Of a stretch of DNA of 64,000 nt, positions 18,001 through 45,000 are shown piece by piece. The position numbers were made by a program. The stretch covers positions 832,001 through 896,000 of the forward strand of contig CAWCFX010000001.1 in NCBI GenBank assembly GCA_963795085.1, read 5' to 3'. The stretch is from an uncultured Gemmatimonadales bacterium. GTDB taxonomy: Bacteria > Gemmatimonadota > Gemmatimonadetes > Gemmatimonadales > GWC2-71-9. Position 1 is the first letter of the stretch. Each line of letters starts with the position of its first letter.

Positions 18001-21000
18001 GATGGCACGTCGCTGAACAGTCATTGCGAGGAGGCCGCAGGCCGACGTGGCAATCTGCTCACCAGGCCTCGGACACAAGGTAGTCATTGCGAGGAGGCCG
18101 CAGGCCGACGTGGCAATCTGCTCACCTTGGCCTGAAGCCGGCTTCCTGCCCACCCGAACCAGATTGCTTCGTCGCGCGACGCGCTCCTCGCAATGACTGG
18201 GTTGGGTCCCGGGGCCGAGGCCATCAGCTCACCTATCTCGGGACACAGGCAGTCATTGCGAGGAGGCCGCAGGCCGACGTGGCAATCTGCTCACCAGGCC
18301 TCGGACACAGGGTAGTCATTGCGAGGCGGCCGCAGGCCGACGAGGCAATCTGCTCACCAACTCACCCGAACCAGATTGCTTCGTCGCGCTCCGCGCTCCT
18401 CGCAATGACTGGGTGGGGTCCCGGGGCCGAGGCAATCTGCCGGACGGGGCCGGCTCGGTCACCGGTGGTTACTCCTGCACTTCACTCCTGCACCGGGATA
18501 TTTCTGCTGCACCAGCATGACCGTCATGCTGGTGCAGCAGTACGGTACCGGTGGTGCAGCGGTACGGTTACGCTGGCACTACGGTATAGTGAGGGCCAGA
18601 ATCGGGACCGGCAGCCGGCCGGTCCATCTCCACACCTTGCCAGTCCCCTCCTGCACCCGGGCTGCTCCGCCCTGGCATGGTGAAACGCCACGGTAGTGTG
18701 ACAGCCGGGATCGGATGGTTACGGGGCACCTTGTGGTTGCGAGCGGAGGTATCCGGCCCGGCACCATCCTGGGCACTGATCGGCAATCGGCAGTTGGCAA
18801 TCGGCAATGGCGTAGTTGGCAGGTGGCAGTCGGCAGTCTGCAGTCGGAAATTGAACCGGCTCGCCCTCGGGCCCATATCCTCCTAGCGCAACGCAGGCCC
18901 CGCGATAGATTGTTCCACCCCCACCCCAGATTCAGACGGGAATGCGATCAGCCGGCCGAAGACGCTTCGTCCCCGTGCGGCAGGGATGACGGGCGGGGAG
19001 TTCCAGCGAAGTGATACCACCTCCTCCATCGAGCCCCATGGGCAGCATCGACGCAGCCGGTTCCACCGGCCCCGGGGTCATCGCGGCCTCCGAGACCATG
19101 CAGGCCGTGCTGCGGCAGTGCCGTCACATTGCCGTCACCCGGTATCCGGTCGCGCTGATCGGGCCGACGGGGGTGGGTAAGGGGCTACTGGCCCAGGCAA
19201 TGCACGCCATGAGCGGCTCGGCGCGGGGCCCCTTCCATATAGTGGGGGGCGGGGAGCTGACGCCTTCCCTGCTCCAGAGCGAGCTGTATGGCCACGAAGA
19301 AGGCGCCTTTACCGGGGCCAAGGGTAGGCGGCGCGGGCACTTCGAGCTGGCGGCCGGGGGCACCATCTTTCTCGATGAGATGCACCTGTGGAAACCCCGG
19401 GTCCAGGCGGCCATGCTCCGCGCCCTGGGAGAACGGGCCGTGATCCCGCTCGGGGCCGCCCGTTCCCTCCCCCTCACCTGCCGGTTCATCTTCGCCGCCA
19501 ACCAGCCGCTCGACGACCTGGTCAACGCCGGGATCCTGGTGAAGGATCTTCGTCACCGGATCGGCGAGTTCGAGATCCGGGTTCCGGGGCTGGCCGAGCG
19601 GCCGGGCGATATCATGCCGCTGGCCTATGCCCACCTCGCGCGGGTTGCGTCGGAGAATGGCTATTCCCCCGGTCTCCGGCTGGAGCCGCAGGTGGCGTGG
19701 CAGCTGATCTGGTACGCATGGCCGGGGAATGTCCGGGAGCTGCACAACGTGATCACCCACGCGGCCGTCAGCAGCGGAGGCGAGCCGGTGATACGGTTGC
19801 ATCACCTGCCGGCCAGGCTGCAGAGACCGCTGGTCCAGTTCGATGCGCTGGACAAGTCGGTGCGTCGGGAGATGGTGGGGTGGGCCTACCGGTTTGCCCA
19901 TGGCAGCCGGTTGGCGGCGGCTGACCTGGTGGGAGTGCATCCCCATACGATTGATTACCACGTCCGGCGGCATGGAGCCGGAGCCAGGGTTCCTGGAGCG
20001 GATGCCTGCTGACTTGCGTCACAAAGCCCGCTCCCTGGCCCCTTCACCAACCTCCACGCTGCCAACCACTTGCCCCGCTGCCAATCCGGCATTGTGATGG
20101 CAGGGCGACTCCTCTCCGCTGGCGAATCCGAGATACGAGGATCGGACGCAACAGGTTAGCGCTCCGTGGCGGGACCGCGCCCAATCCGGCATGTCCCCTG
20201 CTTTTCCCCGGCCATCTCCTCCCATCCAGGATTGGCCATGTTCCCTTCCCGCCGCTGGTTCGCGCTGGCCCTGCTGCCGCTCATGTTCTTTCTGCTCCCG
20301 TCGGAACCGGACGTGGAGGAGGAAACTGAAGAGGTGCCGGGCGGAGTGGAGGTAACCCCGGACGCGGGCGGGCCCATCTGACCCTGAGGCAAATACAAGC
20401 GGGCTGGCAGCCGGGTTCTGGGTGAAGAACACCCGAACAGTCACAACCACGTACACTCTGGCCTGCGGAACCGGCGGCGCAGCCACGTCCTGCGAAGTCG
20501 AGCCTACACAGGTAACGTTGGGCTATAATGAACTCACCGACATCAGTGTTACCTACGCAACCGGGGCGGCGGGGTCAGGTTCTCTGGTTCTGCGTGCGAC
20601 CGGAGCAGCGTCGGATACCGGGTACTATAACGTTGTATCCCTGGGGCAAGGATATCCCGGCGTGGTGCTGAAGAATCACAACGACACCAACCGGGACCGA
20701 TCGGGGTGCCTAATCGCAGGAGCGGGAGAAGGTGCGTGGCAATGTGGCGACCTGCTGGTGAGCCACAGCCTGCCGGGCTACACGACCATGGGCCGGGAGC
20801 GATCCTTGACCATGGTCTATACCTCAGCACAGGCAGTTCCCAAGCCCCTGGTTGCGGCCAGTGTCACCAACGGCGATATCTCCCTGCCGGTCAACGTATA
20901 TGCCGAGCTTCGTGTGGGGACAACCGGCGGCACACAGACGGTTCGTGCTACAGGGACGTTCACGGGCTGGAACTTCGATCCGAGCCCTCGGCAGATCGCC

Positions 21001-42000: not shown

Positions 42001-45000
42001 TTGTCCCAAAGTCGCCACGGCGGCCCATGCTTGCGGTGACCCGTGGGCGCCAGCGCCGCCAGCCTGATCCAAAGAGAGACTCGAATCGCCACATCCACAC
42101 TCATCAGCGGAATCTGGAGTATGACGCGGAGACGGGGTTCTATTACTTCCGGGCGCGGTACTACGAGCCCGCGGCGCGGCGGTTTATCAGCGAGGATCCG
42201 ATCGGGTATGCGGGGGCCGCGAATCTCTATGCTTACGTGGACGGCGATGTAATGGAGGCGCGGGATCCGAGTGGGTTGTTGAAGGATGTCGCGCATTTTG
42301 GGGCGGCTGGACCGGATAATTGGTGGGATCCGAATGCCTGGTTGAACTTCGTGTCAAACGGAGGACATGGTCTACGCGAACTGACATCGTGGCTGAACAG
42401 CGGATTTGCCGCTGCCGCCGATCTCGGTGAATCGTCTACTCATTCTACTGTTGTTACAATTACGAGGGGAGACGGCACCTCGACTGTAATAACCCTCCCG
42501 GGCTCCGTGACGGGTTGCCCCGGTGGGCGTTGTCCTGGCGGGTTAAGCCTTGATCAATACGCTGCCGTGTTGGGCAGCTTCAAGCACATGACGGCCCGGG
42601 CCGCGACTATGGTGGGGAGTCTCCTTAACGAGGGGCAGATTCGGAGCGGGTATTCCTCCGCCTATGTGAACGGGAATAAGGGCGCGGATGGATGGGTCAG
42701 CAATGCCAAGCCAGGGACGGTGTATGTAAATCGAAACCAGGTTACAAGCACATATGTCGGCGATGTCTTCTCTAAAACACCACAGGAGCTGGCACAAATA
42801 CTAATGCACGAAAGCTACCACGTGAATCAATTTAGGAGGCATGGGATCACGTCTTCAAGCAGCCTGAGCGATGCTGTCGGCGCCCGGGGCGCTTACGGGG
42901 CATACTGGGAAGACGACGCTGACGTATTCGCATGTGCTAATCTCGTCGGTGGGTTTGATTGGCAATGCTAATACGGCCTCGTAGGCACTTATCACAGTGT
43001 GTTGCCGTCTGGATGGTCGTCCTCGTTGCAGCCTCCTGCTTCCGTAACGCAGATGTGAAGGAAGTTAAAGATCCTGCCGAAGTTGTCTGCGACTCGATTG
43101 GTGTCGAATGGGCTGAACAGCATACCCCCGGGTTATCACCGCGCAGGTCGGTGCCGCGGGAGGTATGGAGAACGGAATTGCGAATGATAGGTCTTCGGCA
43201 CTGGATAGATATTTATCGCTCCCGGCATCAGTGTCGTTTGCCTGATCATATCGCTGAACTGGGGCCGGAGGATCCCGCCGAGCCCACCCTTGCCCCCTTC
43301 GAGCGCTTCTACCTGGATGGATGGGGAAGGCAGTTTCTCTACAAGCGGGTGGGGACTGGAATGGAGCTCAGGTCTGCCGGGGCGGACGGCCAGATGGAGA
43401 CGCCCGATGACATGATATTCTCCTGGGCGCCACAAGACGGGCGGTGATGCAGCGTGCGATAGTGGTCTTGCCCCGATTTCGTGGACACCTGGGGTTAGGC
43501 GGCGCGACCGGCGAGCCGCGCCTCGAAGGTCACCGGGCTGAGGTAGCCCAAGGCGGAATGCTGCTCGTGGTTGTACCACCTCAGCTAGTCCGGGAACGCT
43601 AACTCGGTCGCTGTCCGAGTGCGCCAGCGCCTCTGGCCCACCAGTTCCCGCTTGAGCGTGGCGAAGAAGCTTTCCACCACCGCGTTGTCCCAGCAGTCGT
43701 ACCTCCAGCCCGTGCTGACGTGGCCCCTCCTATTCCAAGTATATCGCGCTCGGAGGATGTGTCGAATCCTGAGCCGTTATGGTCGAGGTGCCTTTTACGG
43801 CGTACGTCTAACCTGAGTTGCTGACACCATATGTCAACGTCGCACGGCAACAACACCAGAGCACAGCTGACCATGCTGATTCTTCTGAAAGTGGCAGGGC
43901 AAAGCGGCTTTTCTGGTCGTGTGGACATTGTGGCAGATGGCAAGCACCACAGTGGGACCGTGCACGACGCGATAGGCTTCCTGACGGCCTTGCCAAAGCC
44001 GATTAAGTGTCGGAGCGAAGCACATGCCGGTACCTTGCTGCTGTATGTGGAAGCTCCAGGCATCGTCGCATCACCGAGCAGTGTTATAGCGCAGTTGCTT
44101 GCAACGTATTGTAACGGGGTTGCTGGCGGCGATATCATGATTGAGTCAGGAACTGATTCGATGCGGATGTCCATCGCCGATCTCATCAAGTGGACCGAAG
44201 AGTACGTGCTCTCTCGTTACTCGTTTGCAACGACACGACCAACGCTCCCACAAGCGGCATCTGGCATTGTGGCAAATCTTGTAATTGGTCGGCCAGAATG
44301 GGTACCGTCTACCCACCCTTAGATGAGGATCAACAGGTGAACACAGCCTGAGGGAGAAGCATCCTGGCAAAATGCATGGGATGCAGCCGATATGGAGCAA
44401 CTTGAAGCTCAGGGCCAGACCACGTCGTGAGTGACCCGCCACGCCCCACCCGGGGCAAGTGTCCCCCCGCGCCTTTGGTTTCGGAAAGTTTTCGCTGTCA
44501 CCTGTTCTCTGGCGAGGACAGGTCCCGCGGCCCCGCGGGTCGGAGAACGACCGGCCACCGGAGAAATTGGCCTTGAACGCAGGGGAGGCTCGGGTGAGCT
44601 GACAGGAAGGCGCCGTTGACCGGAGAGAAGGCTGCCAGGGGCTCCGGGAACCCGGCGTTGATGGCCGGGACGGCGGTATGGAGCTGCCGGTGAACCCGCC
44701 TTCGGGGGGCGGAAGGCGATCTGTATGCGGCGGGAGGCAACCTTTAACCAGGGGAAGGCAACCTTCAGCTCACGGGAAGGCGACCTTCAGATGTGGGGAA
44801 GGCAATCTGTATCGGCGGGACGGCAACCTTTACCCGGGGGGAAGGCCAGCTATACCTGGCGGGAAGGCAACCTGTACCTGGCGGGAAGGCAACCTCCAGC
44901 TGACGGGAAGGCGACCTTGAGCCGAGGGGAAGGCGGGCTGGGGCCCCGGGAAGGCATTCTACCAGTCCCGGTCACCCATCCTCGCAGCAGGGGGAAGCTT

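Follow-up and report, generated by a model that had tools for sequence, protein, structure and literature searches.

The window analysed here, a stretch of 64,000 nt from a soil Gemmatimonadales genome, contains a gene block that probably acts as a sigma-54-controlled accessory module, coupling a type II secretion system (T2SS) to the Sec-exported Rhs polymorphic toxins that it is likely to secrete. All genes of the block are on the + strand, in the order sigma-54 enhancer-binding protein (EBP) A1, Rhs1, Imm1, T2SS operon, EBP A2, Rhs2, Imm2, orphan Rhs module and Imm3 (coordinates are positions in the window). The initial annotation connected Rhs and T2SS by their adjacency in one genome. We found the connection to be a conserved gene module in Gemmatimonadales with putative shared sigma-54 promoters, and its recurrence suggests that Rhs proteins can be secreted by a route other than the usual T6SS.

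In the mechanism we propose, the sensor-less A1 and A2 would activate -24/-12 promoters before rhs1, the gspE operon, and rhs2. The N-terminal signal peptides would take the Rhs pre-proteins across the inner membrane, where they may be cleaved. In the periplasm, the Rhs proteins would fold into YD-shell cocoons enclosing the C-terminal toxin, which would be cut free at DPxGL, and the adjoining T2SS would move them out by way of its secretin (502 aa). Once outside, they probably bind a competitor by means of their N-terminal Ig-like domain(s). The cargo would act in the competitor's cell envelope, that of Rhs2 as a VgrG2b-type DUF4157 zinc metallopeptidase, and immunity proteins, periplasmic or lipoproteins, whose genes lie directly 3' would protect siblings. 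At about 170 kDa, a YD cocoon is large relative to a secretin channel, which speaks against this route.

Gene content of the block

The previously described gene order was reproduced from ORF coordinates with Pfam and NCBIfam matches, and the structural claims of the initial annotation were all upheld. The genome has three Rhs core matches, all inside the window. The N-termini of both full-length Rhs proteins, reported as Sec-type signal peptides, were found as quoted and are signal-peptide-like, MFPSRRWFALALLPLMFFLL at ATG 20238 for Rhs1 and MFLFRRWTALIALPLLFLA at ATG 36367 for Rhs2. Signal-peptide calls were made with a heuristic of our own, which scored 37 of 57 Rhs ORFs as positive. By eye, neither window peptide has a clear AxA-type cleavage site, and they may be uncleaved membrane anchors.

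Rhs1 (20238-24840) is split by a frame shift in this assembly, as had been described. Its 5' piece (20238..20381) encodes the signal-peptide-like N-terminus and the start of an Ig-like domain, aligns with the N-terminus of Rhs2 (VEVTPD vs VAVTPD), and ends after 47 codons at an in-frame TGA (20379-20381). From about 20338 on, Rhs homology is found in the +1 frame, and the break falls in a stretch of G/C runs. The main frame (20338..24840) carries the Ig-like domain, the YD shell, an Rhs core with DPxGL motifs, and the C-terminal domain CT1 (RHS_repeat E 5.4e-10; TIGR03696 54.9 bits vs a cut-off of 32.5). Rhs2 (36367..41304; 1,645 aa) has a HYDIN/VesB-like Ig domain (E 0.0011) behind its signal-peptide-like N-terminus, followed by the YD shell, an Rhs core with DPxGL, and CT2 (RHS_repeat E 1.4e-10; TIGR03696 71.8 bits). 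The orphan module (42115..42971; TIGR03696 65.7 bits) joins CT3 to a core end nearly identical to that of Rhs2. A repeat search (families D1, D2, and D4) found a direct repeat of about 205 nt flanking the orphan cassette, with copies at 41795..41999 and 43462-43666 that are 1,667-1,670 nt apart and 87-93% identical.

The T2SS operon (26557..35258) was assigned with Pfam and NCBIfam. It comprises gspE (26557-28068), gspG (28055-28534), gspF (28396-29712), three minor pseudopilin-like ORFs with prepilin-type N-termini (29709-29978, 29975-30328, and ~30320-30852), gspK (30849-31724), an L-like ORF with a weak GspL match (31731-32708), gspM (32666-33283), a 158-aa ORF (33280-33756), and the secretin (33750-35258). 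GspG (167.5 bits, cut-off 88.85) and GspM (74.8 bits, cut-off 60) pass their cut-offs. The best matches of gspE, gspF, gspK, and the secretin are GspE, GspF, GspK, and GspD, each under the equivalog cut-off. GspC was not recognised in the window by Pfam or NCBIfam.

Activators and putative sigma-54 promoters

Both activators had been described as lacking a receiver, and neither has an N-terminal sensory domain, the AAA+ domain starting at residue 24 in A1 and residue 14 in A2. A1 (19011..20012; 333 aa) consists of the AAA+ core and lid only (Sigma54_activat E 4.2e-44, residues 24-189; AAA_lid_14), with a GAFTGA motif in its translation. The Pfam search detected no N-terminal sensor or HTH in A1. 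A2 (35255..36241; 328 aa) has the core (E 9.5e-57), the lid, and HTH_8 (E 2.4e-4), and carries the variant GAYTGA. The end of the secretin ORF and the start of A2 share 4 nt. The sensor-less activators PspF and HrpR/HrpS likewise have an AAA+ core without an N-terminal receiver, and HrpR/HrpS control a secretion system. In contrast to these, no partner anti-activator was identified in the window, and A1 has no detectable HTH.

The genome encodes rpoN, and candidate -24/-12 promoters were found before rhs1, the gspE operon, and rhs2. The candidate of rhs1, CGGCATGTCCCCTGCT (20187..20202), is about 35 nt 5' of ATG 20238 and scores 12.5, a value reached by 6.2% of random 300-nt windows; sites of this type recur in relatives. 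The candidate of the T2SS operon, GGGCACGGCCCCTGCC (26506..26521), scores 13.0 and is also about 35 nt 5' of its gene, gspE. Among relatives, 17 of 49 gspE-upstream regions score at least 13, compared with 2% of 4,000 random windows, and their sites are mostly 23-61 nt from the start codon. The rhs2 candidate of the window, GGGCCTATGTCGTGCA (36321..36336), is weak, and its score of 11 is no better than background in the motif scan. At the equivalent place in relatives, 3' of the EBP, 20 of 43 regions reach 13 or more (2% of 4,000 random windows). The recurrence of these motifs 5' of gspE and Rhs genes supports shared regulation, and A1 and A2 may be the activators that act on them.

Distribution in Gemmatimonadales and route of export

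We sampled 60 regions of 20 kb, each surrounding a full-length Rhs gene, in 51 Gemmatimonadales genomes. Orthologues of the window T2SS were present in 25 of them, and by our own estimate the chance of meeting a 9-kb operon in a random 20-kb stretch is below 1%. The order of the genes is also conserved. At 46 of the 74 secretin places, the gene after the secretin encodes an A2-like EBP, with a co-oriented Rhs gene behind it in 32 of these 46 loci (30 by script and two giant ORFs, L118 and L125, on inspection). Six of the other 14 meet the contig end 1.0-1.8 kb past the secretin, five have Rhs elsewhere in the fetched stretch, and three have none. In the other T2SS type, with gspE after gspD and no EBP, Rhs follows the secretin in 0 of 10 loci. 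Across the 401 genomes of the order, with orthologous secretins defined by E <= 1e-94, the Rhs core occurs in 64 of 71 genomes with such a secretin and in 98 of 330 without, and in 40 of the 41 genomes that have a locus of the EBP type. Since kin are not independent, the counts carry less statistical weight than they seem to.

The same survey bears on a reading that we consider rather unlikely, in which the genes are co-regulated neighbours instead of machine and cargo. The T2SS would secrete other proteins (e.g., lytic enzymes), and the Rhs proteins would share only the sigma-54 regulon and the site, leaving by vesicles, lysis, or surface display after Sec, or acting in the periplasm. Half of the Rhs-positive genomes (81 of 162) lack both the orthologous secretin and TssC. 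The five of these that we checked (G137, G062, G323, G261, and G355) have one secretin each and no GspG above cut-off, and three (G137, G323, and G062) carry Rhs proteins that share the signal peptide and the Ig-like N-terminus of the window Rhs; such Rhs proteins can thus occur in genomes that lack a window-type T2SS. Some EBP-Rhs pairs have no T2SS nearby (e.g., L031, L036, L051, and L087). The GC content of the Rhs regions (0.56-0.64) is below that of the T2SS operon (0.67-0.72), which fits insertion beside an older operon. However, the oriented secretin-EBP-Rhs synteny in the 32 loci persists while secretin identity falls from 66% to 47%, the locus type goes almost always with Rhs, and other conserved candidate cargo was not found in the flanks of these loci.

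The T6SS-type Rhs proteins of the order also argue against mere neighbourhood. In its TssC-positive genomes (56 of 401), Rhs proteins without a signal peptide are encoded behind ClpV-VgrG-DUF2169 or PAAR/DUF4123 genes, that is, with their own machinery, so neighbourhood tracks export route in this order. It is highly improbable that the window Rhs are themselves conventional effectors of a T6SS or another contractile injection system, with machinery encoded elsewhere or missed by the assembly. TssC does occur in the order, and the genome is only 93.4% complete; but TssC, Hcp, and PAAR had no match in it, in agreement with the T6SS absence reported before. Window Rhs and T6SS Rhs effectors share the YD shell, the Rhs core, the DPxGL autocleavage motif, a polymorphic C-terminal domain with immunity gene, and orphan modules. 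Whereas T6SS effectors use PAAR, VgrG, or DUF4123 adaptors, no N-terminal module or neighbour of the PAAR, DUF6531, or DUF4123 type and no VgrG partner was found for the window Rhs, which bear a signal-peptide-like and Ig-like N-terminus instead. WapA of Bacillus subtilis is similar in that a Sec signal peptide precedes a T6SS-independent YD-repeat polymorphic toxin. Being from a Gram-positive bacterium, WapA crosses no outer membrane and uses no secretin system.

A contact-dependent, surface-tethered variant of the Rhs proteins, and not a diffusible bacteriocin, is improbable. The N-terminal segment would be an uncleaved anchor, or the Rhs would be attached after T2SS passage. Some T2SS substrates stay surface-associated, and the lack of an obvious signal-peptidase site in both window N-termini is in its favour, but many relatives have canonical-looking signal-peptide ends (e.g., ...LRAQ and ...AAAQ).

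C-terminal domains, immunity candidates and known relatives

All three C-terminal domains contain the HExxH motif described in the initial annotation, at residues 1414, 1574, and 275 of our ORFs (previously 1382, 1542, and 261, because gene-start offsets differ). The motifs are HERQH in CT1 (24376-24837), HETYHVFQ in CT2 (40678-41301), and HESYHVNQ in CT3 (42279-42968). The earlier faint Pfam matches recurred (eCIS_core E 0.15; DUF6782 E 0.11). The reading of these domains as peptidases is supported for CT2. A search of 1.84 billion representatives gave 72 CT2 homologues, and 49 of 58 aligned family members match Pfam eCIS_core/DUF4157. The profile of these homologues matches the effector domain of VgrG2b (PDB 6H56) with E 1.6e-19. 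The AF2 model (pLDDT 80.8) superposes on 6H56 with Z 11.9 and an rmsd of 2.4 Å over 124 residues, the runner-up having Z 6.1. By profile and predicted fold, CT2 thus belongs to the DUF4157/VgrG2b metallopeptidase family. For CT3, which has similar domains in L042 and L117, one feature suggests a peptidase, the shared HExxHVxQ motif. CT1 is an HExxH domain of no assigned family.

Each domain is followed by an immunity candidate with a predicted export signal. Imm1 (g00751; 24861..25526; 221 aa) has a signal-peptide-like N-terminus in translation. Its earlier proposal as an immunity gene is supported by another genome, where in L093 an Imm1-like gene comes after a CT1-like domain (E 4.5e-25 and 9.5e-08). 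Imm2 (41313..41717), a predicted lipoprotein of 134 aa (lipobox LIGC, by eye), has a weak homologue in L046. Imm3 (42959..43447), in the immunity position for CT3, is a predicted lipoprotein of 162 aa (lipobox AASC) whose globular domain resembles T2SSG (E 0.0016, under the cut-off; ESM Atlas 0.94 and 0.93 to T2SSG clusters), and L042 pairs an Imm3-like gene with a CT3-like domain.

The C-terminal domain of Pseudomonas VgrG2b is toxic in the periplasm only, and the proteins that confer immunity to this family are exposed to the periplasm, with many predicted to be lipoproteins (PMC6899460). CT2 shares its family, fold, and HExxH, and CT2 with Imm2 resembles VgrG2b with PA0261 in having a periplasm-exposed candidate partner encoded just downstream. 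VgrG2b carries the domain as a fusion to a T6SS spike, whereas CT2 would be cargo enclosed by an Rhs of the Sec/T2SS type.

T2SS-linked Rhs proteins already have precedents. Bcn-A of Xanthomonas perforans is an RHS-family bacteriocin that is active in the supernatant, and loss of the T2SS secretin xpsD abolishes this activity (PMC7259588). Like the window Rhs, it is a large YD/RHS protein with an immunity gene downstream. Bcn-A, however, uses the general Xps T2SS encoded elsewhere, whereas in the window a whole T2SS operon is joined to rhs and its distribution tracks Rhs. Sigma-54 EBP regulation, the Gemmatimonadota host, and the predicted DUF4157 peptidase cargo also distinguish the window from Bcn-A as described there. 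The second precedent comprises Rhs families linked to gspG in Xanthomonas and Ralstonia, outside T6SS contexts, for which a preprint predicts T2SS use from gene linkage (bioRxiv 10.1101/2025.05.08.652813). Those families are linked to a single gspG gene, whereas the window has a complete E-G-F-pseudopilin-K-L-M-secretin operon and EBPs. The T2SSG-like lipoprotein Imm3 in an immunity position raises the question of what the Xanthomonas and Ralstonia 'gspG' genes really are.

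Organization of the block and its Rhs proteins

The 24-kb block contains Rhs genes, a type II secretion system (T2SS) operon and two genes for sigma-54 enhancer-binding proteins (EBPs), all co-oriented on the + strand. The ORF listing and family scans confirmed the gene order proposed in the initial annotation. The block opens with A1, an EBP of 333 aa (19011-20012, +); Rhs1 (20238-24840, +) and the 221-aa ORF Imm1 (24861-25526, +) come next. The T2SS operon (26557-35258, +) consists of gspE, gspG, gspF, three short prepilin-type ORFs, gspK, an L-like ORF, gspM, a 158-aa ORF and the gene of a 502-aa secretin. 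The start of the second EBP gene, A2 (35255-36241, +), and the stop of the secretin gene share 4 nt. Rhs2 (36367-41304, +) comes next with the 134-aa ORF Imm2 (+) downstream, and the block closes with an orphan Rhs core end carrying the C-terminal domain CT3 (42115-42971, +) and with the 162-aa ORF Imm3 (42959-43447, +).

GspE, GspF, GspG, minor pseudopilins, GspK, GspM and the GspD secretin were all found among the T2SS components. GspG and GspM pass the NCBIfam curated cut-offs; GspE, GspF, GspK and GspD are best matches, yet remain under the equivalog cut-offs. The L-like ORF (325 aa) has a weak PilN match (E 8.5e-4). In the Pfam and NCBIfam scans, the 158-aa ORF matched no family and no GspC was recognized.

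The genome assembly comprises 3.89 Mb on 6 contigs and is 93.4% complete; among named genomes, its closest relatives are MAGs of Gemmatimonadales. The window flanks carry ordinary chromosomal genes (ECF sigma factor, SLT, aminotransferase, SOD, two-component systems, TonB/ExbBD and H+-pyrophosphatase). The gap of ~1 kb between Imm1 and gspE (25527-26556) is low in GC (0.56 in the 24-26 kb bin) and shows no similarity to the fetched loci. No Pfam family was found in the ORFs tested there, in the gaps 41718-42114 and 43448-45153, or in a 337-aa ORF at 45154-46167. Two genes located several kb ahead of the block encode possibly exported proteins, an M6 peptidase resembling immune inhibitor A (10769-13063) and a protein with RCC1 repeats and Big_2 (15483-17159).

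YD/RHS repeats (PF05593) were detected in Rhs1 (E 5.4e-10) and Rhs2 (E 1.4e-10). The Rhs core (TIGR03696, cut-off 32.5 bits) was matched by Rhs1, Rhs2 and the orphan module with 54.9, 71.8 and 65.7 bits, and these are the only core matches in the whole genome. The proteins have the build of Rhs/YD-shell toxins, with YD repeats, a core ending in DPxGL (the DPxG motifs were located) and a variable C-terminus followed by an immunity candidate. Since Rhs1 and Rhs2 share merely 24% identity over the shell, they are old paralogues. At the core end, the orphan module and Rhs2 have nearly the same sequence. The initial annotation had stated that likeness among the copies stops past the core, that both full-length proteins begin with a signal peptide and that a frame shift interrupts Rhs1. 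Our comparison of the copies reproduced the first of these, signal-peptide-like N-termini were found at the same positions, and the frame break is present in the assembly. The signal-peptide frame of Rhs1 stops at a TGA (20379-20381) after 47 codons, and homology resumes at ~20338 in the +1 frame, with the break sitting within a G/C run. Both pieces together align to the N-terminus of Rhs2 (VEVTPD... and ...FWVKNT versus VAVTPD...FTVKNT). No reads across the break (20338-20381) were found in three soil-metagenome runs, whose Logan contigs cover 20448-20859 only. The break is either an assembly error or the mark of a pseudogene.

A direct repeat of ~205 nt (41795-41999 and 43462-43666; 87-93% identity, spacing 1,667-1,670 nt) brackets the orphan CT3-Imm3 cassette. 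Its copies come after Imm2 and Imm3 alike, and the repeat reaches into the 3' end of a 196-aa ORF on the minus strand (43599-44189). The pair looks like the footprint of recombination displacing an older C-terminal domain and immunity module.

Toxin domains and immunity candidates

HExxH motifs were found at the annotated positions in all three variable C-terminal domains, CT1 of Rhs1, CT2 of Rhs2 and CT3 of the orphan module, and the faint Pfam matches to eCIS_core (E 0.15) and DUF6782 (E 0.11) were also obtained again. An exhaustive search among 1.84 billion representatives returned 72 homologues of CT2; a word-based search gave no stand-alone relatives. The conserved core of the family reads TLGN.I...LAHE.THV.QYQ.WG...YGMEQQA. 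PF13699 (eCIS_core, formerly DUF4157) was matched by 49 of 58 aligned homologues, compared with E 0.15 for CT2 alone, and the family profile reached the VgrG2b effector domain 6H56 with E 1.6e-19. The alignment-based AF2 model of CT2 had a pLDDT of 80.8; a single-sequence model was unusable (pLDDT 36). With the alignment-based model, 6H56 was the top Foldseek match (E 0.027, probability 1.00), and VIA-align superposed it on 6H56_B with Z 11.9 and an rmsd of 2.4 Å over 124 residues, the next best structure reaching Z 6.1. Family profile and model both assign CT2 to the zinc metallopeptidase family of the DUF4157/eCIS_core/VgrG2b type, with a predicted zincin fold.

Wood et al. (PMC6899460), who use the name DUF4157, report that the VgrG2b-type domain is toxic solely when sent to the periplasm and that toxicity requires the HExxH glutamate. 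The immunity proteins of this family are described there as periplasm-exposed, many of them as predicted lipoproteins. The immunity candidates of the window fit this picture: visual inspection of the sequences showed lipoboxes in Imm2 (LIGC) and Imm3 (AASC) and a signal-peptide-like start in Imm1.

The HExxHVxQ motif is the sole feature shared by CT3 and CT2. Membership of CT1 in the CT2/DUF4157 family was rejected, with an hhalign probability of 0.8% and no Pfam match; the leads for CT1 come from the ESM Atlas only and point to small zincins (SprT-like, 0.90; M85, 0.88). CT1-like and Imm1-like proteins recur together in one fetched locus (L093), and CT3-like and Imm3-like proteins in another (L042). 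Such recurrence is expected of toxin-immunity pairs. The C-terminal part of Imm3 resembles the GspG globular domain (Pfam T2SSG, E 0.0016; ESM Atlas, 0.94 and 0.93 to T2SSG clusters). Imm3 has no prepilin N-terminus and is a predicted lipoprotein.

Probable sigma-54 control and T2SS-Rhs linkage in Gemmatimonadales

Both EBPs have the sigma-54 interaction domain (PF00158; E 4.2e-44 for A1 and 9.5e-57 for A2), with the loop motif GAFTGA in A1 and GAYTGA in A2, and rpoN is present in the genome. They had been described as receiver-less, which holds: only ~14-24 residues stand ahead of the AAA+ domain in A1 and A2, so they lack a receiver or other sensor domain. A2 matched HTH_8 just under the cut-off (E 2.4e-4), and no HTH was detected in A1.

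A strict TGGCAC-N5-TTGC scan of the window was uninformative, because it gave 45 matches at up to 2 mismatches versus 67 expected, and we therefore used a weighted -24/-12 scan of homologous intergenic regions, with weights of our own. In the 300 nt past the EBP gene, scores of at least 13 occurred in 20 of 43 regions. In the 300 nt ahead of gspE they occurred in 17 of 49, and most of the latter sites lie 23-61 nt from the start codon. As a control, 4,000 random windows of 300 nt, mostly coding sequence, were drawn from these loci, and 2% of them reached this score. The usual site is YGGCACG-N4-NTGCY. In the window, candidate sites were found for gspE (GGGCACGGCCCCTGCC, score 13.0) and rhs1 (CGGCATGTCCCCTGCT, score 12.5), with a weak candidate only for rhs2 (score 11). 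These motifs suggest that the T2SS operon and the Rhs genes share sigma-54 control.

The T2SS-Rhs linkage is conserved in the order. Among 401 genomes, including three unpublished ones (G203, G258 and G358), 162 have an Rhs core and 56 have TssC; 134 of the 162 Rhs-positive genomes are without TssC. An Rhs-centred sample covered full-length Rhs genes (open frame of at least 1,100 aa) with their surroundings, in 60 regions no longer than 20 kb from 51 genomes, four further places being left out. The regions were picked among the matches listed (150 core matches, with 338 more beyond them), and within this sample window-type T2SS orthologues occurred in 25 of the 60 (24 genomes). Starting instead from the surroundings of secretin orthologues (74 places, 64 genomes), an A2-like EBP was found directly after the secretin in 46 places, and by script a co-oriented Rhs came next in 30 of these. 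Inspection added two loci (L118 and L125), where giant ORFs of >2,100 aa with HYDIN/VesB-like Ig domains lie just past the EBP. The other 14 places include six that meet a contig end 1.0-1.8 kb past the secretin, five whose Rhs gene stands at another place in the stretch, in convergent orientation or ahead of gspE, and three without Rhs (G045 C9, G084 and G240 C5). At the last of these (locus L120, 1638-3422), a phage-type integrase is encoded downstream of the EBP.

An orthologous secretin was defined by a best E ≤ 1e-94. Rhs was present in 64 of 71 genomes with such a secretin versus 98 of 330 without, and in 40 of 41 genomes with an EBP-type locus; the statistical weight of these co-occurrence counts is overstated, since genomes of relatives are not independent observations. 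All three families sampled show the synteny, which is kept as secretin identity falls from 66% to 47%. Across 391 genomes of the phylum, the orthologous secretin was found outside the order in only 2 genomes, which belong to the same class (46-47% identity).

In a second T2SS type, with gspE after gspD and no EBP, Rhs followed the secretin in 0 of 10 places. In four loci of this type (L059, L074, L139 and L141), an Rhs gene immediately precedes gspG. At two other loci, L041 (G213:C3) and L069 (G341:C39), the 3' half of a secretin gene (64-70% identity, query residues ~175-499) is found between Rhs genes or behind them; at L041, it is succeeded by an EBP gene and another Rhs gene. This arrangement suggests tandem duplication of a unit of secretin 3' end, EBP and Rhs.

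Probable export route of the Rhs proteins

By a crude heuristic of our own, 37 of 57 Rhs ORFs of the order have a signal-peptide-like start. A conserved domain of ~110 aa follows it (VTPDG...FTV.NTG...C...) and is placed by Pfam in the HYDIN/CFA65/VesB-like Ig family, with a weak match in the window (E 0.0011) and a strong one at L125 (E 1.5e-29). In TssC-positive genomes (for example at L047, L057 and L065), the Rhs proteins have no signal-peptide-like start, and the loci are of T6SS type: ClpV-VgrG-DUF2169-DUF2169-Rhs, PAAR + DUF4123-Rhs and VgrG-TPR-PAAR-DUF6531-Rhs. Because the Rhs proteins of TssC genomes differ in both start and neighbours, gene neighbourhood tracks the export route within the order, which strengthens the case for T2SS export by analogy. 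We also considered the window Rhs proteins as T6SS effectors and rejected this candidate. No PAAR, VgrG or adaptor domain was found by family scan in or beside their genes, and the reported lack of T6SS markers stood for TssC, Hcp and PAAR, each with 0 matches in the 93.4% complete genome (VgrG and TssB were outside this search).

From linkage and analogy, export of the window Rhs proteins by the T2SS is the most likely reading. In this sigma-54-gated module, Rhs would enter the periplasm through Sec and leave the cell through the T2SS encoded next to it; the cargo would then attack the envelope of a competitor, and periplasmic immunity proteins would shield kin. Several observations count against export. 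Neither the orthologous secretin nor TssC is present in 81 of the 162 Rhs-positive genomes. Five of these were checked and had one secretin each and no GspG match above the cut-off, and three of the five still bear an Rhs with a signal peptide and an Ig-like N-terminus. The two signal peptides of the window have no clear cleavage site by eye, and an Rhs cocoon of ~170 kDa is large for passage through a secretin. The main rival explanation is that the T2SS and Rhs are co-regulated neighbours and not machine and cargo; we consider it unlikely.

Going beyond T2SS export as such, a joint reading that we hold tentatively, with somewhat less than even confidence, is an accessory sigma-54-gated T2SS specialized for the export of intact Rhs cocoons, which would act as antibacterial toxins in diffusible or surface-presented form. 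The signal peptide and HYDIN/VesB-like Ig domain would form the export or targeting module, the cargo would be a periplasm-acting, lipoprotein-targeting peptidase, and small T2SSG-fold lipoproteins would have taken on immunity or adaptor roles. If true, the T2SS would be a second dedicated Rhs delivery route beside the T6SS. The conserved coupling, at the operon level, of a full T2SS to dedicated sigma-54 activators and to Rhs genes with signal peptides offers a defined genetic system in which to ask how a ~170-kDa cocoon passes through a secretin, what marks Rhs as a T2SS substrate, and how released Rhs re-enters the envelope of a competitor. The module also suggests a way in which the many Rhs-bearing soil bacteria that have no T6SS deploy these toxins.

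Rhs toxins have been studied mainly as T6SS cargo, and T2SS-dependent Rhs secretion is represented by one mutant phenotype and by gene-linkage predictions. The literature covered (supplements and most subscription journals lay outside its scope) contained no account of rhs genes linked to a complete T2SS operon under sigma-54 EBPs and no such T2SS-Rhs analysis for Gemmatimonadota. Zhang et al. (2012; PMC3482391) already put signal-peptide RHS toxins, HExxH peptidase toxins included, under 'T2SS' export. The mutant phenotype concerns Bcn-A, an RHS-family bacteriocin of X. perforans, whose supernatant activity is reported to be lost in an xpsD mutant (PMC7259588). In a 2025 preprint (10.1101/2025.05.08.652813), Rhs families from Xanthomonas and Ralstonia are associated with a gspG gene and T2SS export is predicted, according to its authors without functional confirmation. 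The 'gspG' genes beside these Rhs genes may encode Imm3-like proteins.
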